From positions 24,678,001-24,742,000 of the forward strand of contig CM059432.1 in assembly GCA_030390025.1 (NCBI GenBank): a stretch of 64,000 nt of DNA, written 5' to 3'. This stretch comes from Squalus acanthias (taxonomy: Eukaryota). Both the position numbers and the translations under genes were made by a program. Of the stretch, positions 15,263 through 29,852 are shown piece by piece. Every line of letters starts with the position of its first letter. Position 1 is the first letter of the stretch. The notes under the pieces were generated by a model that saw only the letters and a program-made list of their open reading frames with translations, made no database searches and was not told the origin of the DNA.

Positions 15263-18013
15263 TTATGATCTAAAATTGTTGAACTCGATATTGAGTCCAG
15301 AGGGCTGTAGCGTGCCTAAACGAAAGATGAGGTGCTGTTCCTCGAGCTTATGCTAAGCTTCCGTGGAACAGTGTAATAGGCCGAGGACGGTGAGGTCAGA
15401 GTGGGAGTGAAGCGGTGAATTAAAGTGACAGGCCACCGGGAGCTCGGGGTCCCCCTTACGGACTGAACGGAGGTGTTCCGCAAAGCGGTCACCCAATCTG
15501 CGTTTGGTCTCCCCAATGTAGAGGAGTCCACATCGTGAGCAGCGAATACAGTATACTAAATTGCAGGAAGTACAAGTAAATCGCTGTTTCACCTGGAAGG
15601 GGTGTTTGGGGCCCTGGACAGTGGGAAGAGGGGAGGTATAAGGGCATGTGTTGCATCTCCTGCGCGTGCACGGGAAGGTGCCGGGCGAAGGGGAAGGGGT
15701 GCTGGGGGTGGTAGAGGAGTGGACTAGGGTGTCGCGGAGGGAGCGGTCCCTGCGGAATGCTGAAAGGGGAGGTGAGGGGAAGATGTGTTTGGTGGTGGGA
15801 TCACGCTGGAGGTGGCGGAAATGGCGGAGGATGATCCGTTGAATGTGGAGGCTGGTGGGGTGAAAGGTGAGGACAAGGGGAACCCTATCGTGGTTCCGGG
15901 AGGGAGGGGCAGGGGTGAGGGCAGATGTGCGGGAGATAGAACGGACACGGTCGAGGGCCGTGTCGACCACGGTAGAGGGGAATCCTCGGTTGAGGAAAAA
16001 GGAAGACATGTCGGAAGCACTGGTATGGAAGGTGGCATCATCAGAGCAGATGCGGCGGAGACGGAGAAACTGGGAGAATGGAATAGAGTCCTTACAGGAG
16101 GCGGGGTGGGAGGAAGTGTAGTCCAGGTAGCTGTGGGAGTCGGTGGGCTTGTAGTGAATGTTAGTCAATAACCTATCCCCAGAGATGGAGATGGAGAAGT
16201 CGAGGAAGGGAAGGGAAGAGTCGGAGATGGACCATGTGAAGGTGAGGGAAGGGTGGAAATTGGAAGCATAGTGAATGAAATGTTCTAGTTCAGGGCGAGA
16301 GCAGGAGACGGCACCGATACAGTCATCAATGTACCGGAAAAAGAGGTGAGGGAGGGGACCCGAGTAGGACTGGAACAAAGAGTGTTCCACATATCCCACG
16401 AAAAGGCAGGCATAGCTAGGACCCATGCGGGTACCCATAGCAACACCTTTAATTTGGAGGAAATGGGTAGAGTCAAAGGAGAAGTTGTTCAATGTGAGAA
16501 CAAGTTCAGCCAGGCGGAGGAGGGTGGTGGTGGATGGGGACTGGTTGGGCCTCTGTTCAAGGAAGAAGCGGAGCGCCCTCAGGCCATCCTGGTGGGGAAT
16601 GGAGGTGTAGAGGGATTGTACGTCCATAGTGAAGAGGAGACGGTTGGGGCCGGGAAACTGGAAACTGTTAAAATGGCGGAGGGCATCGGAAGAGTCGCGG
16701 ATGTAGGTGGGAAGAGACTGGACAAGGGGAGAAAAAATAGAGTCGAGATAGGAAGAGATAAGTTCCGTGGGGCAAGAACAGGCTGAAACGATGGGTCTAC
16801 CGGGGCAGTCCTGTTTGTGGATCTTGGGAAGGAGGTAGAAGCGGGCTGTGCGGGGTTGGGGAACTATGAGGTTGGCGGCCGTGGGGGGAAGATCTCCAGA
16901 GGAGATGAGGTCAGTGACAATCTTGGACACGGTGGCTTGATGTTCGGTAGTGGGGTCATGGTCCAGGTGGAGGTAGGAGGAGGTGTCAGAGAGTTGGCGT
17001 TCAACTTCCGCTAGGTAGAGGTCGGTTCGCCAAACAACAACAGCGCCACCCTTGTCAGCAGGTTTAATGACAATGTCAGGGTTGGATCGGAGAGAATGGA
17101 GTGCTGCAAGTTCAGAGGGAGGTAGGTTGGAGTGAGTGAGGGGAGCAGAGAAATTGAGCTGGCCGATGTCACGGCGGCAGTTAGCAATGAAAAGATCAAG
17201 AGAGGGTAAGAGGCCAGAGGGAGGGGTCCAGGTGGAACGAGAATTCTGAAAGCGGGAGAAAGGGTCAGCCGTGCGGGGGGAAGACTCCTGGCCAGAGAAG
17301 TGGGCACGGAGACGGAGGCGGCGGAAAAAGAGCTCAGCATCGTGCCGAGCTCGAAATTCATTGAGATGGGGGCGTAAGGGGATGAAGCTCAGGCCTTTGC
17401 TGAGGACTGATCGTTCGGAGTCAGAGAGGGGAAGGTCAGAGGGGATAGTGAAAACGCGGCAGGGGGTGAGATTGGGAGAAGGGGGGTCAGAGGAAAGTGA
17501 AGGGGAAGAAGGTTCCGGAGGGGCTTTAGTGTCCAAGAGTTGTTGAAGCTTGCGATCCTTGACATCGGAAAGGAAGAAGAAAAGTTTTTTGTTGAAGCGT
17601 CGGATGAGTCTAAGGATGAAATGGAACTGTGGACCCGGACAGCTTTGAGATAGAGTGCGTCGGTGCTGCTGAAGAGAGATGTCGAGAGTGTTCATGTGGC
17701 GCCGCATGGCATTGAGCGTGGATCTCAAGATGCGGCGAGAGCAGTAGTTCGAGGAACGATGAATATCTTGGAGATATTTGTAATCCTGGGTGGATCCGAA
17801 ACACGAAGGGTGGAAGTTTAGTTGGAATCCACGTGGGATAAGTCGGAACCGGAGACAGTTGCTGAGGAAAGTAATGTGGCTGTGAAACCGAGTCTTGGCA
17901 GATACCTGATCAAACACGAGAAGGGAAACTGAAATCAATGAAGATGAACAAGGTTGAAGAGCCAAACGGAAATCCCGTCGAAGAGAAGAGCAGAACTTCT
18001 TCAAGGTAGGCAT
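15263..18013 (-). pseudogene. Penelope RT / GIY-YIG endonuclease with one premature stop at 15353-15355
   Basis: IKPADKGGAVVV, LPKIHK, GVAMGTRMGPSYA, RYIDD, Cys linker CTRRRCNTC, LVYCIRC..LYIGETKR; frame resumes after TAG as HKLEEQHLIFRLGTLQPSGLNIEFNNFRS*; start at 18013 is inferred (ORF is open from 18178). Confidence 0.88.
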
Positions 18014-18148
18014 TCCAAGAAGAGAGGTGGCAGTGAACCAAACACTAATACGATAGCAAAATACTGCAGATGCTGGAAATCCGAAATAACAACAGAAAAC
18101 GCTGGAAAAACTCAGCAGGCCAGGCAGCATCCGTAGAGAGAGAAAGAG

Positions 18149-18185
18149 AGTTGACGTTTCAGGTCGATGACCTTTCATCAGAACT
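18149..18185 (-). ncRNA. Minimal type I hammerhead ribozyme, copy 2
   Basis: Identical to 14949-14985. Confidence 0.8.
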
Positions 18186-18633
18186 GGGAAGAGCTGGAAA
18201 TCAAATAGATTTAAGGCCAGGGTAAAGCTGGGAAAAGGGGGAGGGGATAAAGGAACAAAGGAGGAGATGAAGAGACATTAAGAGACATTAAGAGATATGC
18301 AAGGCTGTTTGTAAGATTGTACTGTCATTAATCTGTGCTTATGACATGTATTTCATAATCTTAAGTATCATGCAATAAAGATTTTCCATTTCGTACCATT
18401 CAAACCAAGTCTACATGAGTTTTATCTCCATTACTGCTCTCGCATCTAAGTCCAGTGTCTAGAACCGTAAGGGAGAGTGATTCGAACCACTCACAGGTGT
18501 GTCTAGTGTTCCCAGACTGGCTGGAGACCAGAACAGGCAACAAGGCCTAGACCCGCACTGACATACAGGCTGCACAGAGCCGCGTGAATCTCACAGGCTG
18601 CGAGACACGCAGGGTCGGGAATCCCTTACAGAA

Positions 18634-20447
18634 AATGGCGACCGCGGCAGGACACTGGCAGCGAGAGGGTAGTGTGTTAGATTTTGGAATGACTGTACGA
18701 AATGTTATGCAGGAAAAGATAGCGGATTATGTGTTTGGAAAGGTTAATCTAACTAAGAAATGGATAAGTGAATTGTTAGCGGATAAGAGCCCACTAGAGG
18801 CAGCTGAAAGGTGGACAGATAGTAAAGAACATAGAAAGACACTTGAGAAAGCAGTCTGGCTTATGTGTTACAAAAGGCAGGTTCAGATTTCAAACCAGAC
18901 CATTACAGCGCTAGTAGCTCGAATCAGTCATTTAGAGGGAGAAATGGAGGAGAAGGTTTCTGGAGGGGAGGTGCTCATTAAGAATTTAAATGAGTTACAC
19001 CAAGAAAGCCAGGAAGTCTCCAGTCACCTTAAAACAAGGATAGATTATCTCGAGTGCCAGGTCACTGAGGCAAAATTGAATGAGAGCAGGTTAAAGGAAA
19101 GATGTAACCGCCAAGCTGCCCAGATAAGAACTCAAGAAGAGAGCTTAATTGGGGGTTAGGGCGGCATATAAGTTGGCCCTTGAGGATAAGTTTAAGGGAG
19201 CCGATCATAGCGCCTGCCAAAGGGAGATAGAGCACCTCAAAAAAGCCGTGAACAATGCGAACGGCATGGTGTGCCTTATCAATCCGTCGGCGCACCAGCC
19301 GCTAGTAAATGAGAGATTTAGAAAATCCCCACCAAGTAAAGCAGAAGAAGTAGTAGCCACTGCGCCCTCCGCGCCACCCAGCTATTCAGAAACCTGGGTT
19401 AGGGAGGAAGCAATGGAAGAAACAAAAGAGCCCATTGAAAAGGAAGTAGAAAAGGGATCGTTGTATCCAGTAACGGGTATTAAAAGGGGCCCAAGCAGAA
19501 ACGGTGGGGAAGAACCGGGGGATCTCCTCGGACAGCTGGTGTTGCCTCACAGTTCACATCAGCTGAGAGCTATGATAAATCACGTACGGAAGCTGACCGA
19601 GGCAGACGACCCTTCCGTACATTTCAGAGAAGTTGAGCAAGCCGCAGCCATTAACGGCTGCGATGATGGGGAGACAGCAAAAATGCTGCTGTTCTCATTA
19701 GACAGCTCGGTCCTTCAGTGTCTCTCAGGCGAGAGCAAGAGGGGAACCAAGAGTTATGAGGAATTAAAGAATGAGGTCCTGGAAGTGTTGGGGGCGAACG
19801 ACGAAGGTCCGTTTGCTAGAGTGGGACAGACAGTGCAGATGGAGGGAGAACCCCCGAAGGTTTTTGCCGACAGGCTGTGGCCAGTATATGAGCGCAGCTG
19901 TCTAGGTGCGCCCGAGCGCGAAGATGTGGAAGGTTTAGCTTTAACTCATTGGCTTAGGTGCATAATAGCCAACAGTTTACCAGCCGTTAGAGAGCAGGCA
20001 AAAGCATGGTTTGATCCCAATGACCCCAACATTACGGAAGAGTCGGTCTTGAATCGACTCACGTTAGGTTATCGCAATATAAGGGGTATGGCAACACGTC
20101 CCCTTAAGGGAAGAGTACATGAGGTACGACCCGCAGCCCCGTATCAAAGAGAGTGGCATCAGGAGGGTAATCGCGCCCCACAGGCAAGTAATGCTTGTTA
20201 CGGGTGTGGGAAGACAGGGCACTGGCGCAAGCATTGCAGGAACCCTTGGAAGGATTCCAAGGATAAAAATCCCGCGGTCCGAGCCCAGGCGCCTGTCCCG
20301 GCTAAGGAAGCCAAGGCACCCACCCCTCCCGACGACCTCGAAGCAGTGTTAGGAGCCATGCGCAAGCTGGTTTTGAATGCGCGTGGACAGGTGGCGGTCG
20401 CAACCGGCCCCGTAGGTGCCGCAGGACCGTCTAATAGTACCCCATGA
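18634..20447 (+). pseudogene. gag: gag, split by a +1 frameshift near 19151-19155
   Basis: Coiled-coil N-terminal ORF (18584-19159) plus ORF 19149-20447 with PSAPPSY, capsid-like helical region and CYGCGKTGHWRKHC knuckle; start codon uncertain. Confidence 0.8.
18635..18652 (+). promoter_or_regulatory. Primer-binding site, tRNA-Ser-like
   Basis: TGGCGACCGCGGCAGGAC 4 nt after the LTR-terminal CA; TGGCG...GGCAGGA resembles the complement of a tRNA-Ser 3' end (recalled, not searched). Confidence 0.6.
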
Positions 20448-23400
20448 CTAGAACCAGCACAGCCCGTCTACCTGTGTCCGCTTAGCTATGATGCGTGGAG
20501 GCGACCTGTGGTGGAGATGGAGGTAGAGAAACAGAAGGGTAGTTATTTGTTGGACACGGGAGCTTCTTGCACCATAATCCATACAGATAACCCTTTTGAC
20601 TCGCCGCTATCTACCAAGGTCCCATTCACGTTAGCAGGGTTCACAGGAAAAGAACAGGCTGGCACGTTTTCCCTTCCGCTATCCATTCGTTTAGGAACAC
20701 TTCGCCTTAAGTGGAAGTGTATACTGATGGCATGGCAAAAGGGGGGTGGAAGAGGTATTCTCGGGTCCGATCTCCTAGCGGGACACGGGATCCTCGTGGA
20801 CCTCAGAAATCACTGTCTCTGGGGGGCTAAAGGTGAAAAGGGCGAGGTGATAGTGATTCCGGGGGAGGAAGAAACAGGGGTCCTGTGTACCGTACAGCCA
20901 TCCGGAGGCTACGACCTCAGGCTTATGGTCGCAGATGTCCCAACGGACATGCAAACGTACGTGTCAGATAATATGCACGCGTTTGCAACCCACAAGCACG
21001 ATTGTGGGAGAGTGGTCGGGTTTGAGGTCAGCGTAGATGGGGACCCCATGACCCGACCCCAAAAGCAGTATAACTTCCCCAAAGAAGCCGAACCCGATAT
21101 GGAGACAGCAATGTCTTCCTTGGTGCAGCAGGGCGTGTTGAGGCCGATAGCCACACACGTGAACTCCCCATTATGGCCGGTTAGGAAGCCGGATAATTCG
21201 TGGAGAGCCACGGTGGACTACAGAGTCCTTAACAGTAACATTCCCGCCTGCGCGCCCACAGTAGCAGCAGTTGCTGACCTAATAGGGAGCATCCCAGCGT
21301 CCGCGACCACGTTCACGGTGCTGGATATCTCGAACGGTTTTTGGTCCATCCCGCTGCGGCGAGAGGACCAGTACAAGTTTGCCTTTACTTTCAAAGGACA
21401 ACAGTACACATGGAACTGTCTGCCACAGGGTTTCCACAATAGCCCCAGTATTTTTCATCAGTGTATGGCAGGAAGTTTAAAGGAGTTTAGTCAGCCCAAT
21501 CAGATAGTACAGTATGTGGATGATTTGCTCCTATTTACGGACTCAAGGGAGGAGCACGGACCACTACTGGACGAGTTATTGGAGCTGTTAGCGAGAAAGG
21601 GTTTTAAAATAAACCCTAAGAAAGCACGTATCGGTCAGCGGGAAGTAAAATTCCTGGGACTGACCATACGCGCTGGGGAAAGAACCATAGACAAAGCAAG
21701 GAGGGAGTCGGTGCAAGAATTACCGATTCCCAACAACGTAAGGGGTGTGAGGTCCTTCTTGGGACTGACCGGTTACTGCAGGGATTTTATCGAAGATTAT
21801 GCGGCCACAGCGGCGCCGCTCCTCCGACTCCTCCATAAGGGGGTGGAGTGGTTTTGGGACGAGGGCTGCCAAGCAGCCTTCGAGAAGTTAAAAAGGGATC
21901 TGCAGACCGCGCCAGCCTTAGGGGCCATAGATGGGGGGAAGGAGTTTTTCCTGGAGGTAGCTGCCAGCGGAGACAGCTTAAGCGCCGTGCTGCTCCAAGA
22001 GCGTCACGGCAAGCTGAGGCCGGTTGTCTATTCATCCAGGGTATTAACGGATGTGGAGAGAAGTTTCTCCAATTGCGAAAGGCACCTTTTAGCCACGCAT
22101 TGGGCTGTGAAAAGATCAGCGATCTTCACAGGGCTCTCTCCCATCACTCTCCTCACACATCACACACCAACTAAGATGCTTCTGGATGGGAGGATTAAAG
22201 ACGGGACCGTAAGCAGCGCACGCATTGCGCGTTGGACCCTTCTTCTCTCCCAGTTGGATCTTAGAGTAAAAGGTCTTTGCGAGCCCAGGCTTGCGGCCAA
22301 TTTGGTATACCCCGGTACAGCCCACCGGTGTTCGGTGGAAGGGGTATGGGACGTCAACATAGGTTTACGGGCCGGGATACATCCCACTGGGCGCGAGATT
22401 TATGTTGATGGGTCTAGCACAGTGTCTGCTGGCGAGCGACTCACAGGGTGTGGAGTTTATGACCCTGCGGCAGACCTTGCCCTGGCGATCAAGCTCCCTA
22501 GCACTATGAGCGCGCAGCAAGCTGAGCTGTCTGCCGTGGTGTACGTTGTGACCCACCCAGACATTTTCCCAACCCCATACACGATTTGCTCGGACAGTAT
22601 GTTCACCTGCAATTCGTGTACGGAATACCTGGCCATTTGGTCCCGCCGCGGATACACCTCCGCGGACGGGCGACCTTTAACGGTGAAGCCCTTGCTGGAA
22701 AAGATCTTAGCAGCAGCAGTAGGGGAGGAAGGAGAGATTTTCATCCATAAGGTGAAAGCTCACTCCTCCACAGAGCCCCGTGGGGAGGGCAACCGGCAGG
22801 CGGATGCGCTAGCCAGGGAGGGTGCCCGCGACGGCACTTTCTGGAACCCCTATAGGACCGGACCCATAGCAGCGGTCCGAGGCGGGGACGGGAATCCCGG
22901 GAACCCCAGGGTAGCATTGCCCCTAGACCTTAAGACCGTCCAAGCCCAGGATCCCGCCCTAAAAGCAGTCCTAAAAACGATTGCTGAGGGGAGGCAGGTA
23001 GAAGGTCCGTACAGTACGGCAACCCTCTCAGTTAAGGAAGGCATGCTGTTCCGCGAGGAGCAGTGGGTTGTGCCGCAGCAGCACAGGAGGGAATTCCTCC
23101 AGTTGGCTCACGAGGGACCAGGGGCAGGGCACCCCGGGTCCGAGGTTACCTGGCAACGGGTAGAGCAAGCGGGATGGTGGCCAGGGCTCAGGGAACAAGT
23201 CCGCGAGTTCTGTGCAAACTGTCTTGTGTGCGCTGCAAACAACCCAGACCCCCAGAAAAGGAAGGTGCCCATGGGACACGTAAGAAGGGTAGAGGGACCA
23301 TGGCAGTCGATACAGATCGACTATATAGGACCCCTGCCCACCACCCAGGGAGGGTATAAGTACTGCCTCGTCCTGGTGGATGTGTTTTCCAAGTGGGTGG

Positions 23401-24971
23401 AAGCCTTCCCTTGTCGAACAGCTACGGCACTGGGTACAGCAAAAATCTTGGTCCGGGAAGTGTTCTCGCGGTGGGGACTCCCCCGTTTTGTGGAGTCAGA
23501 CCAAGGGAGTCATTTCACCGGCCAGGTGATGCAGAACACCCTCATGCTTTTGGGCATTGAAGGGAAGTGGCACGTAGCACACAATCCCCAGTCATCCGGG
23601 ATTGTTGAACGTATGAACCGGACCCTGAAGGAGAAATTGAGGAAAGAGACTAGGAACTCGCCCCAAAAATGGGCGGAAGTTCTGCCTTTAGTCCTCATGG
23701 GGGTCCGGGCCAGTCAGTCAAAAAGTACGGGGTACTCCCCGCACGAGGTAATGACCGGCAGGCTCATGCGAACCCCCACCCATGTGCTAGCCCCGGTGCT
23801 CACTGAGGGTCAGCTCCAAGAGATAAGCAGGGACAAGTTCGCCCAGACTCTCTTGGAGCGCCTGAAGCAAGTTTATGAGCAGGCGGCTGGGAACATGGGA
23901 AGGCAGCATCAGGGCAATCGCTTGTTGCTGGAACCCCGCAAAACGCGGGAGTGGGAAGTAGGAGACCAGGTCATGGTCAGAAACTACGCCAGAGTAGGGA
24001 GTCTGGAACCACTGTATATGGGACCCTACAACATTGTAGACAAGGCGAGTCCCATGGTTTACGCCGTAAAAGTACCTCGGCGCACTAAGTGGTTCCACAT
24101 AAACCAATGCAAACTGTACCAGCCAGGTGCGCAGGGGAAAACTACAGGGGTAAATCCCGCCAATGGGAAAGCACAGCCCCAGGTAGGACCACAAGGCACA
24201 CAGGCAGGCATAGCAGCTTGCATCAGGGGAAGGGACATCCCGGACGATCATGCAGCGTTTTTCTGGAATTGGGGGTTAGATGAGGAAGAATTCAGGGTAC
24301 CCTGGTCAGATGAGGATAGTGCAGATGAGCATAGTGATGATGACGGGTGGTTCCTGAGGAACGGTCTGGAGGGAATGGGGGCTGTAGGTAGAGATCCACA
24401 CAGGGTGGACACACAAGCTGCAGGTCCCGAGGACAGGAGGGAGGAGCTAGAGGAGGCAGGGCCAGCCGCTATAGGAGCACAGAGAGTACCGGTGTGGCTC
24501 CCAGAGATGTGGCCGCCCGCTTTGAACGTCCAGTCCTCAGGGGAGGCAGAGATCACGAATGAAGGGCCGCCTGCTGGGCCGAGCAGGGCGGAGCCACGAA
24601 TTGCCAGCCCCGAGGTTAGGGAGGCGGAGTCAGCAGAGGCGGAGCCGGCGACTGTGATGGAACCCCAGGTCATCCCGATGGAGGTCTCGGAACCCGGTCC
24701 GTCCGTCACGGAACCCCCGCCCATAGCAACTCCCCGTAGGTCAAGTAGAGAACCCCAGCCCAGGAGGATGTGGTCATGTCCCCAGACTGCCCCAAGGCGT
24801 AAATTTCAGGTTAAGATAACCCGGGTACAGACCGGCCACATCGCAGCAGTAACAGGCTGCGGCAGATCAGAGGGAAGGGTCAGCGCAGCAACAGGCTGCG
24901 GCAGATCAGAGGGAAGGGTCAGTGCCCTCCCACCGTCGGGAAGAGCTCGCAGCAGCCTTCTCAGAATTTAA
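20448..24971 (+). CDS. pol: pol polyprotein: protease, RT, degenerate RNase H tether, RNase H, integrase, C-terminal extension
   Basis: LLDTGAS; LDISNGFW, LPQGF, YVDD; IYVDGSS/AQQAEL/SDS/GNRQADALA; HHCC, QIDYIG, SDQG, GIVERMN, GPY; open from the gag stop. Confidence 0.93.
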   Translation, partial: LEPAQPVYLCPLSYDAWRRPVVEMEVEKQKGSYLLDTGASCTIIHTDNPFDSPLSTKVPFTLAGFTGKEQAGTFSLPLSIRLGTLRLKWKCILMAWQKGGGRGILGSDLLAGHGILVDLRNHCLWGAKGEKGEVIVIPGEEETGVLCTVQPSGGYDLRLMVADVPTDMQTYVSDNMHAFATHKHDCGRVVGFEVSVDGDPMTRPQKQYNFPKEAEPDMETAMSSLVQQGVLRPIATHVNSPLWPVRKPDNSWRATVDYRVLNSNIPACAPTVAAVADLIGSIPASATTFTVLDISNGFWSIPLRREDQYKFAFTFKGQQYTWNCLPQGFHNSPSIFHQCMAGSLKEFSQPNQIVQYVDDLLLFTDSREEHGPLLDELLELLARKGFKINPKKARIGQREVKFLGLTIRAGERTIDKARRESVQELPIPNNVRGVRSFLGLTGYCRDFIEDYAATAAPLLRLLHKGVEWFWDEGCQAAFEKLKRDLQTAPALGAIDGGKEFFLEVAASGDSLSAVLLQERHGKLRPVVYSSRVLTDVERSFSNCERHLLATHWAVKRSAIFTGLSPITLLTHHTPTKMLLDGRIKDGTVSSARIARWTLLLSQLDLRVKGLCEPRLAANLVYPGTAHRCSVEGVWDVNIGLRAGIHPTGREIYVDGSSTVSAGERLTGCGVYDPAADLALAIKLPSTMSAQQAELSAVVYVVTHPDIFPTPYTICSDSMFTCNSCTEYLAIWSRRGYTSADGRPLTVKPLLEKILAAAVGEEGEIFIHKVKAHSSTEPRGEGNRQADALAREGARDGTFWNPYRTGPIAAVRGGDGNPGNPRVALPLDLKTVQAQDPALKAVLKTIAEGRQVEGPYSTATLSVKEGMLFREEQWVVPQQHRREFLQLAHEGPGAGHPGSEVTWQRVEQAGWWPGLREQVREFCANCLVCAANNPDPQKRKVPMGHVRRVEGPWQSIQIDYIGPLPTTQGGYKYCLVLVDVFSKWVEAFPCRTATALGTAKILVREVFSRWGLPRFVESDQGSHFTGQVMQNTLMLLGIEGKWHVAHNPQSSGIVERMNRTLKEKLRKETRNSPQKWAEVLPLVLMGVRASQSKSTGYSPHEVMTGRLMRTPTHVLAPVLTEGQLQEISRDKFAQTLLERLKQVYEQAAGNMGRQHQGNRLLLEPRKTREWEVGDQVMVRNYARVGSLEPLYMGPYNIVDKASPMVYAVKVPRRTKWFHINQCKLYQPGAQGKTTGVNPANGKAQPQVGPQGTQAGIAACIRGRDIPDDHAAFFWNWGLDEEEFRVPWSDEDSADEHSDDDGWFLRNGLEGMGAVGRDPHRVDTQAAGPEDRREELEEAGPAAIGAQRVPVWLPEMWPPALNVQSSGEAEITNEGPPAGPSRAEPRIASPEVREAESAEAEPATVMEPQVIPMEVSEPGPSVTEPPPIATPRRSSREPQPRRMWSCPQTAPRRKFQVKITRVQTGHIAAVTGCGRSEGRVSAATGCGRSEGRVSALPPSGRARSSLLRI

Positions 24972-25283
24972 AGGGGCCGCCCTGAGAACGGGCGGCACTG
25001 TATAGTAATAAGTTTTAAGTTTTAAGTTTATAGTTCAAGGTTAAGTTTTAAGTTTATAGTTCAAGGTTAAGTTTATAGCTTTAATAAGGTTAAGTTTGTA
25101 GTGTTTTTAACAGAAAACGATAAAATGATGGGAGCTTTAAAGATAGGTTCAGTTGAAGTTTATTCAGCGAACGTTGAAGTTTACGTGAGGCGAGGTCAGG
25201 GGACCCGCTCACCCTTCACAAAAGCCAGAGACTCTTGCGAGGCTGGCTACCTCATTCTATCTGATCACAGGAACCAAGGAAGG

Positions 25284-27635
25284 ATGGAACGAATTCTAGT
25301 ATTGCTCGTGGCAATCGGATGCGGATTGGCCTATCGAGGCCGCACCAAGGATGTCGTGGTGTTTGGATGTTCCGGGGACACGGCCCCCATCGCGGTGGAT
25401 GGGACCGGAAGACGGGAGGCAGAGGAGACCAGCACCTATTTCCACAAGGGAAGGTGGCCAGGATGGCTGGGAACGAACTCAACGGAGTATTCCAGCACAT
25501 CGGGGTTTGCCTACAAAGAGACTTCTTTACTGTGCCCCAAAGTAAGGATCATCGCACCCAGGATCAGCGTCACCGTCGGCAAACGGATTTGTTTGACTTG
25601 TAGTGGGAAGGTCCCATTGAGCCGATGGTGGTGGCTGCGAAAGCTGAGCAAAACTATGAGGAACTCTTCGGTCGAGTGGGAACGACTGGGTAATAATACC
25701 CATCGGACAATTACGGGGACAGACGGACAAGTGAAAGTCTGTTGGGACAAATGGTGGGAACCGGATGAGGGAATTTATGTATGTATGTGGGGGTCAAAGT
25801 ACGTTTGCCCCAAAGGCATCTCCATATTTTTTATTAATCAATGGCAGGATAACGGACAGGGGATGAGGTGGGATGCGAGCACCAGGGGGTGCGGAGCCCC
25901 ATTCTCCCCGATCCCGGTAAATGCCACTGAGCTCATTACGCGCCCACGCAAAGCCCCGCCCACGATTCCGGTGGTTCTAGCTGAGGAAGAAGGGTGCCCT
26001 AAAACTAGTAAGGGACCCGGGAATGGTTTGGTACTGGTCCCCACAGACCAGATACTATTTCAGGGGGTACATTACGCGGTGGCCTCGGTGATTTTAAATC
26101 TCACTGAGGTACGGTTACCAGAGTGGTGCCCCAAAAAGACGGAACAGTTGTACCAGGTCCTGTTGACCAAGATGTTCAGACAATTTTACGAATTCGATTT
26201 CGCGGAAATTGATAAAACAAGTTTGTACACCGCGCCACAGGAAGTTTTGGATCAAGTAGGGAGGCAAAGAAGGGGTTTGGTGAACGATGCGTTCACTGCT
26301 TTTAACACAGGTACATCTGTGGTCAACGCTCTAGACAGTGTGGAGCTGCAGACCCAGATTAATGGTTTAAAGACACAATTAAAGGACATTCTAACAGATG
26401 AGAATAAAGTGGTAGGGTCGGGTCTACACGAGGACCAAGCCATGACCCTCCATTTAAAGGAAATTATAGCAGAGTTGGAGAAACATGCAAAGACGGTAAA
26501 TGCCCTGATTAGGGAAGATCGGAATGCATCCGATCAAGCTGCGCAGAAGGAGGTGTGCGTGCTTTACGGGGCGTGGTTACTGGGCGAGGGCCGCAGTAAT
26601 TTGGAGGATTTAAAACAAGGTTTGGTTCCGTCCTGGATAAGTAACAAACACCTACGGGCGCTCCACCCTTTTCAGAACGCATTAAGCCCGTGCCAGCTCA
26701 GGCTAGCTTCAGAAGCATACCCAGTCCCCGTGGACTGTGGACGATCAAACCATACTATTATGGGTATAGTTTTACGTATGCCGGTTTTGGGCGACACAGC
26801 AAAGCCCGCCCCGGTATATCGGGTAGAGAACATTGGTGTCATTCAGGGGGGAGCCCACATTCGTTATGCAGCGGTTCCACCTTACGTCATCCGCTGGGAG
26901 CAAACGATGACAGGTACAGATCTCTCTGGTTGTCGTGGCAGGGGAGCACACATAATACTGTGCCCCCAGCACTTGAATGCCTTTTTAACACCACAGTGCG
27001 GGTTCAGAACGACTGGCGCCAAGTCCATGAATTGCACCATGGAGGCAATGGCACAAGATCATGTGCCTCCGCAGGTAGCATACATCGGGGGTGGAACATA
27101 TTGTGTTACCACTGCAGCGCAACACTACCAGCATGGAAACCGTAGCCGGTGTCCGGTGAGTGACAGCAGTTTCTGTTTTAAACCCAGGGCGGAAGTTCAA
27201 GTAGCACAACAGCGAATTATCCCAATCCCTGAACCATCCACTGTTCATCTCACAGTAAAAGAGAATTTCACCGACTTGCAGCGATTCGTCGCGCATTTTG
27301 GATACCTCATTCCCCCTCTCCCTGAACACCTCACCAAGCTTTTGAAAGCCGTCGCGGTATCACAGAAACATTTTTATACATTAGAGCAGAAAACTGTCGA
27401 AATAGGAACAGACATTCTGGATATAGTAGTTCCACCGTGGTGGAATCTGTTCACCAATATTGAAGTACCTTCATGGATCAGAATAGCCTCCCACATTTTA
27501 GTCGTATGCCAAGTTTTCATTGTAGTGTACCTATTGGTTGTACATTGTAAAAGAGACAAACGCCTCACCAAGCATGAAAACACGGGAGAGTGGCGAGAAC
27601 GTTACGTGCGCGTGCACGATGAGAGCACCGTGTAA
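25284..27635 (+). CDS. env: env: signal peptide, Ig-like domain, class I fusion glycoprotein, TM anchor (783 aa)
   Basis: MERILVLLVAIGCGLA signal; LTC..W..DEGIYVC; RQRR/GLV furin site at 26262-26273 followed by heptads; Cys-rich block; TM IASHILVVCQVFIVVYLLVV; N-glycosylation sequons. Confidence 0.85.
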   Translation: MERILVLLVAIGCGLAYRGRTKDVVVFGCSGDTAPIAVDGTGRREAEETSTYFHKGRWPGWLGTNSTEYSSTSGFAYKETSLLCPKVRIIAPRISVTVGKRICLTCSGKVPLSRWWWLRKLSKTMRNSSVEWERLGNNTHRTITGTDGQVKVCWDKWWEPDEGIYVCMWGSKYVCPKGISIFFINQWQDNGQGMRWDASTRGCGAPFSPIPVNATELITRPRKAPPTIPVVLAEEEGCPKTSKGPGNGLVLVPTDQILFQGVHYAVASVILNLTEVRLPEWCPKKTEQLYQVLLTKMFRQFYEFDFAEIDKTSLYTAPQEVLDQVGRQRRGLVNDAFTAFNTGTSVVNALDSVELQTQINGLKTQLKDILTDENKVVGSGLHEDQAMTLHLKEIIAELEKHAKTVNALIREDRNASDQAAQKEVCVLYGAWLLGEGRSNLEDLKQGLVPSWISNKHLRALHPFQNALSPCQLRLASEAYPVPVDCGRSNHTIMGIVLRMPVLGDTAKPAPVYRVENIGVIQGGAHIRYAAVPPYVIRWEQTMTGTDLSGCRGRGAHIILCPQHLNAFLTPQCGFRTTGAKSMNCTMEAMAQDHVPPQVAYIGGGTYCVTTAAQHYQHGNRSRCPVSDSSFCFKPRAEVQVAQQRIIPIPEPSTVHLTVKENFTDLQRFVAHFGYLIPPLPEHLTKLLKAVAVSQKHFYTLEQKTVEIGTDILDIVVPPWWNLFTNIEVPSWIRIASHILVVCQVFIVVYLLVVHCKRDKRLTKHENTGEWRERYVRVHDESTV

Positions 27636-27922: not shown

Positions 27923-28222
27923 AATCTGTGCTTATGACATGTATTTCATAATCTTAAGTATCATGCAATAAAGATTTTCCATTTCGTACCATTCAAACCA
28001 AGTCTACATGAGTTTTATCTCCATTACTGCTCTCGCATCTAAGTCCAGTGTCTAGAACCGTAAGGGAGAGTGATTCGAACCACTCACAGGTGTGTCTAGT
28101 GTTCCCAGACTGGCTGGAGACCAGAACAGGCAGCAAGGCCTAGACCCGCACTGACATACAGGCTGCACAGAGCCGCGTGAATCTCACAGGCCACGAGACA
28201 CGCAGGGTCAGAATCCCTTACA
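27923..28222 (+). repeat. 3' LTR remnant (distal 300 bp only)
   Basis: Matches 18330-18630 with 4 substitutions and 1 indel by eye. Confidence 0.9.
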
Positions 28223-28399
28223 AGGAGGAGGGGGTAGAGAAATTCGATAGGATAAAAATAGATACAGAGACGTACTTAAAAGGTTGGCAGCACTCAAAGT
28301 ACAAAAGTCACCCGGTCTGGATGGGATGCATCCATGGTTGCTGAGGGAAGTAAGGGTGGAAATAACGGAAGCTCTGGCCACAATCTTTCAATCCAAATT

Positions 28400-29852
28400 A
28401 ATGTAATCCCACTATTTAAAAAAGGCGGTAGAGAGAAAACGGGGAATTATAGATTGGTAAGCTTGACATCGGTAGTGGGGAAAATGCTAGAGTTCATTAT
28501 AAAAGATGTAATAGCAGAGCACTTGGAAAACAGTGACAGGATCGGACAAAGTCAACATGAATTTACAAAAGGTAAATCATGCTTGACTAATCTACTGGAA
28601 TTTTTTGAGGATGTAACTGGCAGAATAGATAAGGGAGAACCAGTGGATGTGGTATATTTGGACTTTCAGAAGGCTTTCGATAAGGTCCCACATAAGAGAT
28701 TAGCGTGCAAAATTAAAGCACATGGGATTGGGGGTAAGGTACTGAATTGGATAGAGAACTGGCTGGCAGACAGGAAGCAAAGAGTTGGAATAAACGGGTC
28801 TTTTTCCGAGTGGCAGGCAGTGACTAGTGGGGTACCGCAGGGATCAGTGCTAGGACCCCAGTTATTCACAATATATATTAATGATCTAGATGAGGGAACT
28901 AGATGTAATATCTCCAAGTTTGCAGACGACACAAAGCTGGGTGGGCGTAATGCTATGAGGAGGATGCAGAGAAACTCCAGTATGATTTGGACAGGTTGGG
29001 TGATTGGGCAGATGTATGGCAGATGCAGTATAATGTGGATAAATGCGAGGTTATCTACTTTGGTGGCAAAAACAGGAAGACAGATTATTATCTGAACGGC
29101 AATAGATTGGGAAAAGGGGAAGTGCAACGAGACCTGGGTGTCCTTGTGCACCAGTCTCTGAAGGTAAGCATGCAGGTGCAGCAGGCGGTTAAGAAGGCAA
29201 GTGGTATGTTGGCCTTCATAGCAAGAGGATTCGAGTACAGGAGCAAGGATGTCTTGCTGCAGTTGTACAAGGCCTTGGTGAGACCACACCTTGAGTATTG
29301 TGTGCAGTTTTGGTCACCTTATCTGAGGAAGGATGTTCTTGACATGGAGGGAGTGCAGCGAAGATTCACCAGACTGATACCCGGGATGGCAGGAATGACG
29401 TATGAAGAGAGATTGGGTCGATTAGGCTTATATTCGCTCGAGTTTAGAAGACTGAGAGGGGATCTCATTGAAACTTATAAAATTCTAACAGGACTCGACA
29501 TACTTGATGCAGGATGGATGTTCCCGATGGCGGGGGAGTCCAGAACCAGGGGTCATAGTCTAAGGATAAGGGGTAAGCCATTTAGGACTGAGATGAGGAG
29601 GAATTTCTTCACCCAGAGAGTGGTGAGCCTGTGGAATTCTCTACCACAGAAGGCAGTTGAGGCCAATTCATTAAATATATTCAAGAAGGAGTTAGATATA
29701 TTTCTTAAGGCTAAAGGGATCAAGGGATATGGGGAGAAAGCAGGGACAGGGTACTGAATTTGGATGATCAGCCATGATCTCATTAAATGGTGGGGCAGGC
29801 TCGAGGGGCTGAGTGGCCTACTCCTGCTCCTATCTTCTATGTTTCTATGTTT
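28400..29852 (+). mobile_element. Younger 5'-truncated CR1 inserted in an older CR1
   Basis: [45 protein letters not shown]; (ttctatgt)n tail; host CR1 resumes at ~29853. Confidence 0.88.

Follow-up and report, generated by a model that had tools for sequence, protein, structure and literature searches.

A probable immunoglobulin-like domain ahead of the fusion module in a retroviral envelope protein of Squalus acanthias

What is a sequence with the hallmarks of an immunoglobulin (Ig) domain doing near the front of a retroviral envelope protein? The question is raised by an env gene within a 64,000-nucleotide stretch of the Squalus acanthias genome (GenBank assembly GCA_030390025.1, contig CM059432.1, positions 24,678,001 to 24,742,000 of the forward strand), referred to here in its entirety as the window. 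A preliminary description of this locus, made from the sequence without searches, proposed a host-derived Ig domain used for receptor binding or immune mimicry, carried on an F-like fusogen that has no separate attachment protein. From sequence comparisons and predicted models, we conclude that the segment probably adopts an Ig-like fold, and we lean towards a single-chain attachment-plus-fusion Env in which this fold would serve as a receptor-binding head on a class I fusion module.

Env residues are numbered from the translation of window positions 25275–27635, with residue 1 at 25275. The protein divides into the following parts:

25284–25331, + strand: signal peptide, MERILVLLVAIGCGLA, from the translation; relatives with a different upstream sequence retain this start.
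25332–25535, + strand: conserved N-terminal leader segment of 68 residues with no assigned fold, containing GRWPGWLG-NST-YSS.
25536–25844, + strand: Ig-like (V/I-set-like) domain, residues about 88–190, delimited by motifs, profiles and models.
25845–26009, + strand: linker, in which lie Cys206, the N-glycosylation site NAT and, at 25944–25970, the Pro-rich PRKAPPTIP, from the translation.
26010–26273, + strand: F2-like end of the surface subunit (SU), starting at KGPGNGLVLV, with the helix TEQLYQVLLTKMFRQFYEF and ending in the furin-type RQRR.
26274–27635, + strand: fusion subunit, with a weakly hydrophobic N-terminus, heptad helix, Cys-rich β region, membrane-proximal helix, transmembrane (TM) anchor and short tail.

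The Ig-like domain is N-terminal in Env, as had been supposed, but it does not directly follow the signal peptide, since the conserved 68-residue segment lies between the two. In the same way, the Pro-rich linker said to separate the domain from the fusion module is present in the form of PRKAPPTIP, but some 30 residues with one Cys and the N-glycosylation site intervene. The leader has invariant residues among the relatives (G47, N49, S50, S54, S55 and Y61 in the alignment); no fold or family was predicted for 25332–25535, where AlphaFold2 (AF2) confidence (pLDDT) was about 30–48.

All of the peptides quoted as the Ig pattern between 25540 and 25800 are found in the translation of the env open reading frame (ORF), namely ISVTVGKRICLTCSG at 25563–25607, RWWWLRK at 25623–25643 and EPDEGIYVC at 25758–25784. 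Cys109 is followed after nine to eleven residues by Trp118–120 and after 61 residues by the Cys170 of DEGIYV-Cys170, a spacing of the B- and F-strand cysteines that falls within the Ig-superfamily range of about 55–75 residues. Among aligned relatives, 14 of 15 retain the first of these cysteines and 13 of 13 the second. At the C strand, where a Trp is expected 10–15 residues past the first Cys, alignment position W41 is invariant and W40 is present in at least 90% of relatives, and the strand-F motif reads (D/E)(E/Q)G(I/V)Y(V/M/L)C in most of them, one copy having C instead of Y. The motif columns are thus retained in 13–15 diverged relatives, and the residues that make up the motif are the invariant ones. 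Because of this retention, and because a shuffle-controlled alignment with host Ig exons places the same residues in register (see below), we regard the Cys...Trp...DxGxYxC pattern as standing above chance.

The B strand also carries a conserved C-L-(T/S/V)-C motif (Cys106-x-x-Cys109, window 25590–25601). Together with Cys87, Cys156 and Cys178, this motif suggests two additional disulfides, possibly one between strands B and E and one from the N-terminus to strand G. A B–E disulfide recalls the V-set domains of siglecs.

Three kinds of profile comparison converge on the Ig superfamily. Ig_3 was the only Pfam family to recur, in 13 of 15 relatives at E ≤ 5 with a best value of 2.3e-4; the window copy, scanned alone as a 121-residue segment, scored 15.7 bits (E 0.022). 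Searched against 177,635 PDB sequences, a profile built from the 15 relatives put two IgV chains of CRTAM at the head of the list, with E values of 0.007 and 0.013 (PDB 4h5s and 3rbg), aligned over 92 columns that include the B-strand Cys and GxYxC. The Ig protein DIP-eta came third, and the remaining four matches, at E 0.9–1.1, were unrelated. Finally, the profile was aligned by hhalign with 26 Ig_3 exons taken from the same genome, giving a score of 27.2 (P 1.2e-4, probability 55%) over 71 columns with the Cys, the Trp and DxGxYxC all in register. The reversed profile scored 11.5. In 200 column shuffles the mean was 11.4 and in 200 six-column block shuffles it was 13.7, with a maximum of 23.9 in the latter set; the real score was reached in 0 of 200 trials of either kind. 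Among ESM-Atlas neighbours of the N-terminal 237 residues, all those with a family label belong to Ig families, at 0.82–0.85, which we treat as a lead only.

Two AF2 runs were made, one on residues 20–245 with nine sequences and one on residues 80–200 with 15. Both models show an all-β, A-to-G strand pattern with Cys109 on strand B, Cys156 on strand E and Cys170 on strand F. In Foldseek comparisons with the PDB, the top 50 matches for each model are almost all Ig V-type domains (antibody V domains, basigin, embigin, PD-1 and CD8), with best E values of 1.3e-2 and 2.8e-3, probabilities mostly of 0.8–1.0 and TM values of about 0.4–0.5. A viral library searched in the same way returned herpesvirus Ig-like glycoproteins.

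The part of Env downstream of the linker has the layout of an F-type protein: a furin site before the fusion peptide and first heptad, a Cys-containing β region of about 250 residues, and a helix next to the TM anchor. The furin-type RQRR occupies residues 330–333 (26262–26273) and the peptide that follows is only weakly hydrophobic. A long helical heptad region begins at residue ~356, nine Cys lie within ~250 residues (at 428–634), and the membrane-proximal helix and TM anchor span residues 686–718 (27330–27428) and 735–756 (27477–27542). The closest ESM-Atlas look-alikes of the 541-residue module are Gypsy/Baculo_F clusters at 0.96 (215 of 256 features shared), followed by Fusion_gly clusters at 0.93. 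No C-x6-CC motif occurs anywhere in Env, so that it is not a gamma-type Env. We therefore consider the fusion module likely to be of the F type, on the basis of its architecture and its language-model look-alike score.

The Ig-like domain can be followed beyond the window copy. Two further families in the same genome share it, at 56–65% identity, with synonymous divergence (dS) saturated and nonsynonymous divergence (dN) of 0.24–0.29 over the Ig segment between families. The leader is 50–56% identical, and the linker is the least conserved part at 44–55%, with dN/dS of 0.27–0.48 in comparisons covering all 55 codons and 0.73 in one with 42 codons. The fusion subunit is 79–82% identical in the four comparisons spanning the greater part of it, with dN/dS of 0.06–0.07. 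Identity thus descends from the fusion subunit through the Ig segment to the leader and linker, and the Ig-like domain is under purifying selection in three diverged families of this genome. Gene models of Rhinoraja longicauda, Pristiophorus japonicus and Rhincodon typus carry the domain too.

Several of these results weigh against an Ig-fold head on an F-type fusogen. Every Pfam Ig match, that of the window copy included, lies below the 30-bit cut-off, and the best of the 200 column shuffles, at 25.2, fell little short of the 27.2 that hhalign gave for the real profile. Mean pLDDT was 42.6 and 49.2 in the two AF2 models, no residue reaching 90, and there was no Foldseek match to the PDB at E ≤ 0.001. 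VIA-align, which is independent of Foldseek, placed the N-terminal sandwich of transglutaminase first among 48,161 chains (Z 7.6), and Ig domains scored Z 5–6, a range that a common arrangement alone can give. The domain is unusually rich in Trp, with nine of Env's 20 within 103 residues, and its five Cys include three beyond the canonical pair. The F-like nature of the fusion module is without sequence-level support: Pfam PF00523 (Fusion_gly) gave no match at E ≤ 1 with whole Env or at E ≤ 10 with four fusion modules, whole-Env phmmer against the PDB returned nothing relevant, and a profile of the four modules against the PDB and Pfam gave chance-level matches such as ferredoxin and DUF6360. 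Lastly, the Ig-like domain shows more conservation than is usual for receptor-binding domains caught in an arms race.

The sub-threshold scores, the low AF2 confidence and the odd composition are what would be seen if the segment were instead a lineage-specific, Cys- and Trp-rich β domain of another kind, its likeness to C...W...DxGxYxC having arisen by chance; Foldseek, given poor models, tends moreover towards the very numerous antibody chains. We judge this unlikely, as the Pfam HMM, the PDB profile and the profile–profile alignment to host exons, with its shuffles, agree both on the family and on the register, the language-model neighbours are again Ig proteins, and chance would have had to place the motif on precisely those residues that are invariant among relatives. 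It is because these independent tests, none of them strong singly, agree on family and register that we hold the Ig-like fold to be probable. The Ig-like domain is thus the best reading of the segment, as first proposed; the checks by Pfam and by AlphaFold with Foldseek yielded Ig_3 and Ig V-type matches, at sub-threshold scores and low pLDDT. The F-like label given to the fusogen, for its part, is borne out by architecture and the ESM-Atlas score but not by Pfam Fusion_gly or by any PDB sequence match.

What, then, might the domain do? By analogy, we infer a role in receptor binding. We lean towards this role because an F scaffold accepts such modules, according to the available text of a study of foamy-virus Env (PMC11468914), and because the ORF list holds no second envelope-like ORF in the provirus, in agreement with the preliminary description's remark that a separate attachment protein is lacking. 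On the model that we favour, the env product would carry out both attachment and fusion in one protein. Its furin-cleaved fusion module would have the build of paramyxovirus F, baculovirus F and gypsy Env. The Ig-like domain, with a predicted canonical Cys109–Cys170 pair, would be held by a flexible tether, Pro-rich and glycosylated, at the end of the trimer farthest from the membrane. From there it may bind a host cell-surface molecule, either an Ig-adhesion-type protein or a glycan, and receptor binding would release the fusion module, as in foamy-virus Env and the coronavirus spike. The CRTAM-like match suggests an Ig-type adhesion partner; the Trp-rich surface and the possible B–E cysteine pair would also suit glycan binding.

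A domain in this position might alternatively act as a structural cap or glycan shield, stabilising the prefusion trimer or hiding the fusion module, with receptor contact made by the leader or by the fusion module itself. The Ig-like domain is better conserved than the segments adjoining it, as a scaffold would be, it contains a conserved N-glycosylation position, and the leader, which would have to make the contact, has invariant residues too. We nevertheless find this distinctly unlikely: positive evidence for a cap is lacking, and in the class I systems compared, as far as they are covered in the available text of the papers, modules added at the N-terminus or inserted serve as receptor binders.

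The database searches bear on the question of origin and on a further alternative, in which a captured cellular Ig-superfamily domain would serve mainly in immune mimicry or evasion, as a decoy or as a ligand of inhibitory receptors, rather than in entry. A phmmer search of 1.84 billion representative sequences returned 11 proteins. Eight of these come from Rhinoraja, Pristiophorus and Rhincodon and are either fragments or chimeric models; a metagenome fragment is alike. When whole Env or the fusion module was used in a word-based search, only three chimeric gene models, from sharks or skates, came up each time; a profile search limited to longer proteins gave six matches, all retroviral. No cellular Ig protein was found in the phmmer search or in the longer-protein profile search, so that the capture from a host, which the preliminary description had inferred, finds no donor there; if a capture did happen, it took place before the viral lineages of sharks and skates diverged. 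Mimicry could appeal to the Ig fold being the commonest host-derived fold among viral immune-evasion proteins, to the nearest viral structures to the model, which are the herpesvirus immune-evasion glycoproteins US2, US3 and US11, and to the top PDB sequence match, CRTAM, being an immune adhesion receptor. These structural matches are all weak, however, and the host Ig exon match is remote: across its 71 columns, identity to the first row of the template is 30%. As the domain moreover forms part of the sole envelope protein and lies upstream of the fusion module, where an entry function is expected, we regard mimicry as its main purpose as very unlikely.

Two of the phmmer matches were set aside. 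A 5014-residue bacterial-type, β-helix-like repeat protein (E 2e-18) aligned through 16 weak Gly/Asp/Ala-rich repeats with the leader, a weak likeness that was rejected as compositional. A 361-residue protein with internal repeats matched weakly (E 5.3e-4) in four short stretches against residues 164–198. In the public gene models of the sawshark and the skate, Env pieces are fused to Niban-like, zinc-finger, cadherin-related or repeat sequences, and these fusions are probably annotation chimeras arising from insertions of endogenous retroviruses (ERVs).

A fuller history can be sketched for the receptor-binding head, which we put forward as a possible but doubtful scenario. In it, a lineage of shark and ray retroviruses, akin to the lokiretroviruses and overlooked in the published screen for them, would long ago have joined a cellular adhesion-type Ig domain to the N-terminus of a paramyxovirus-F-type fusogen. 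Attachment, by Ig–Ig or Ig–glycan recognition, and fusion would thereby have been united in one protein, and the family would have spread recently enough for at least 150 copies to encode an identical head. The fused domain in that scenario would have been nectin/CRTAM-like, or else siglec-like with a B–E disulfide and a Trp-rich sugar-binding face. The Ig-like head is small and amenable to expression and structure solution and, if the model is true, it could help to identify the receptor that a retroviral lineage of cartilaginous fish uses.

The family to which the window copy belongs is a very young, highly amplified ERV. The N-terminal 237 residues of Env are encoded at 100% identity in at least 150 places in the 3.7-Gb genome (from 6078 first-look candidates), and by hand count 115 of 150 identical places lie within open frames of at least 800 residues. 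So many identical copies suggest very recent activity.

The env gene belongs to a complete-looking provirus in the window, with long terminal repeats (LTRs), a coiled-coil ORF, gag, pol and env:

18330–18616, + strand: 5' LTR, core of a direct repeat of 287 nt, 99% identical to 27923–28209 at a spacing of 9593.
18635–19159, + strand: coiled-coil ORF upstream of gag, 174 residues, from the ORF list, at the position of the lokiretroviral 'smc' part.
19266–20447, + strand: gag, 393 residues, with one CCHC zinc knuckle (zf-CCHC, E 0.059; weak nucleocapsid-knuckle matches).
20517–24971, + strand: pol, encoding protease, reverse transcriptase (RT), a tether-type RNase H, RNase H and integrase, from Pfam and PDB matches.
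25284–27635, + strand: env, from the ORF translation.
27923–28209, + strand: 3' LTR, core of the same 287-nt direct repeat.

The true ends of the 5' LTR probably lie a few tens of bases beyond the repeat core. The 174-residue upstream ORF gave weak coiled-coil-type matches in Pfam and no match to the SMC family there. For pol, the Pfam matches were RVT_1 (4.9e-36), RT_RNaseH_2 (2e-21) and RNase_H (2e-19), together with Integrase_H2C2 and rve, and the PDB matches were Ty3 (2.2e-71), RT of the murine leukaemia virus (MLV) type (6e-70), foamy-virus protease–RT (1.6e-63) and prototype foamy virus integrase (1.1e-33). The gag and pol frames are the same, with one stop codon between them (window 20445–20520), an arrangement suggestive of read-through of that codon and not of frameshifting.

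The coiled-coil ORF of this copy overlaps gag by a few bases and is read in another frame (window 18635–19266). Near their junction, contigs from three public runs show a one-base length difference from the window, and in those contigs the coiled-coil ORF and gag may share one frame, like the published Smc-Gag-Pol. Contig depth over env and the 5' end is several-fold above that over pol in two runs that are only guessed to be RNA, and is flat in a third; such unevenness would fit a subgenomic env message, although contigs cannot show transcription. No leader-to-env splice joint was seen in the contigs. The flanks of the provirus hold other retroelements, namely a 941-residue RT-containing ORF at 15353–18178 (− strand) and RT fragments of the LINE (long interspersed nuclear element) type at 28334–29757 (+ strand).

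Among the closest published counterparts are the lokiretroviruses of Wang and Han (2020; PMC7947760), for which the statements that follow draw on those portions of the article and supplement that were available. Like lokiretroviruses, the shark element has LTRs, a coiled-coil ORF before gag, gag, pol with a tether and an RNase H, and env; Loki-Str encodes a Smc-Gag-Pol polyprotein with a coiled-coil N-terminus, as judged by eye. The Env proteins share a signal peptide, a basic cleavage site, a long helix, a Cys-containing β region and a TM anchor, without CX6CC, and by eye an F-N-x-G-x-x-S-V-N-like motif past the cleavage site. They differ in the peptide after cleavage, which is strongly hydrophobic in the published proteins and far less so in the shark Env, and in Pfam, where Loki-Str matched Fusion_gly at 2.2e-7 and the shark Env did not. 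By comparison with the PDB, which is not a tree, the shark pol is about equidistant from the Ty3, MLV-type and foamy enzymes; this equidistance and the position of the coiled-coil ORF fit a deep branch and a lokiretrovirus-like plan.

The principal difference lies at the N-terminus. The published lokiretroviral Envs are about 600 residues long with ~95 residues before the cleavage site, and in all 10 N-termini that were read in the supplement a basic cleavage site was found by eye within about 115–150 residues; in the shark Env the site is at ~330, ~310 residues after the signal peptide. Moreover, the GP..G(I/L)V(L) motif, which by eye marks the mature N-terminus of the lokiretroviral proteins, occurs in the shark Env at residues 247–254, after the linker. 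Because of the displaced cleavage site and the position of this motif, we read the leader, the Ig-like domain and the linker as an N-terminal add-on of about 215 residues, absent from the published lokiretroviral Envs as judged by eye on the printed text. By the same inspection, none of the 10 N-termini holds a Cys...Trp...DxGxYxC segment, and the Ig-like module is thus missing from all of the lokiretroviral Envs with which the shark protein was compared.

The published screen found lokiretroviruses in 0 of 6 chondrichthyan genomes, Rhincodon typus among them, yet whale-shark gene models carry the Env head, which points either to a divergent relative that the screen missed or to a different lineage with a similar Env. 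The label 'lokiretroviral' in the preliminary description is supported in part: the provirus plan and the dual RNase H agree with it, PF00523 and the distribution reported in the available text do not. Should the relationship prove true, lokiretrovirus-like elements would be extended to a vertebrate class with none in that screen (PMC7947760). The available portion of the paper makes no mention of Ig, and in the literature on lokiretroviruses, on ERV envelopes in sharks and fish and on retroviral receptor-binding domains we came upon no account of an Env of this kind with an Ig-like head; the preliminary description, made without searches, likewise knew of none. A paper on zebrafish Env38 (PMC10072453) was considered and discarded, the 'Ig-like domain' there being that of CD4 and not of Env, and a preprint on anamniote Env proteins (10.1101/2021.11.23.469661) deals with gamma-type Env only, without mention of Ig.

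Set beside the IgV domains of CRTAM and nectin-like proteins, the viral one is much richer in Trp and carries three additional Cys. The E values are only 0.007–0.013, and the comparison is not meant to suggest orthology. In the SU of gammaretroviruses, an N-terminal receptor-binding domain is followed by a proline-rich region. The order of parts in the shark Env is similar, with a probable β-sandwich head, a Pro-rich linker and then the rest of SU, but there is no CX6CC or TM subunit of the immunosuppressive-domain type, the fusion module is of another kind, and no gammaretroviral receptor-binding domain is among the fold matches listed.

The comparisons that bear most directly on function are with foamy-virus Env and the coronavirus spike, as described in the available text of Fernandez et al. 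(2024; PMC11468914), in which F is presented as a minimal scaffold that accepts receptor-binding modules, placed N-terminally in the coronavirus spike and inserted in foamy virus, neither of which has a separate attachment protein. Like foamy-virus gp130, the shark Env would combine an F-like scaffold with a receptor-binding domain of its own. The foamy-virus domain comprises ~330 residues of a previously unidentified fold inserted between the N- and C-terminal parts of SU, whereas the shark module has ~100 residues, is Ig-like and is N-terminal; the shark element also has no foamy-type leader peptide, and its gag has a zinc knuckle. In the same available text, the term 'immunoglobulin superfamily fold' is used only for domain II of the F-like core. 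The coronavirus spike resembles the shark Env in carrying its receptor-binding modules at the N-terminus of a class Ib fusion scaffold, but those modules have other folds and are much larger, and the likeness, drawn from description, is to an unrelated virus. Overall, the shark Env would follow a known design, in which an F-type scaffold is fitted with an added module; the module would be new, and the host class is one not reported for lokiretroviruses. If true, a deep-branching retrovirus whose F-type Env bears an Ig-fold head would add an independent third solution to those of the coronavirus spike and foamy-virus Env.

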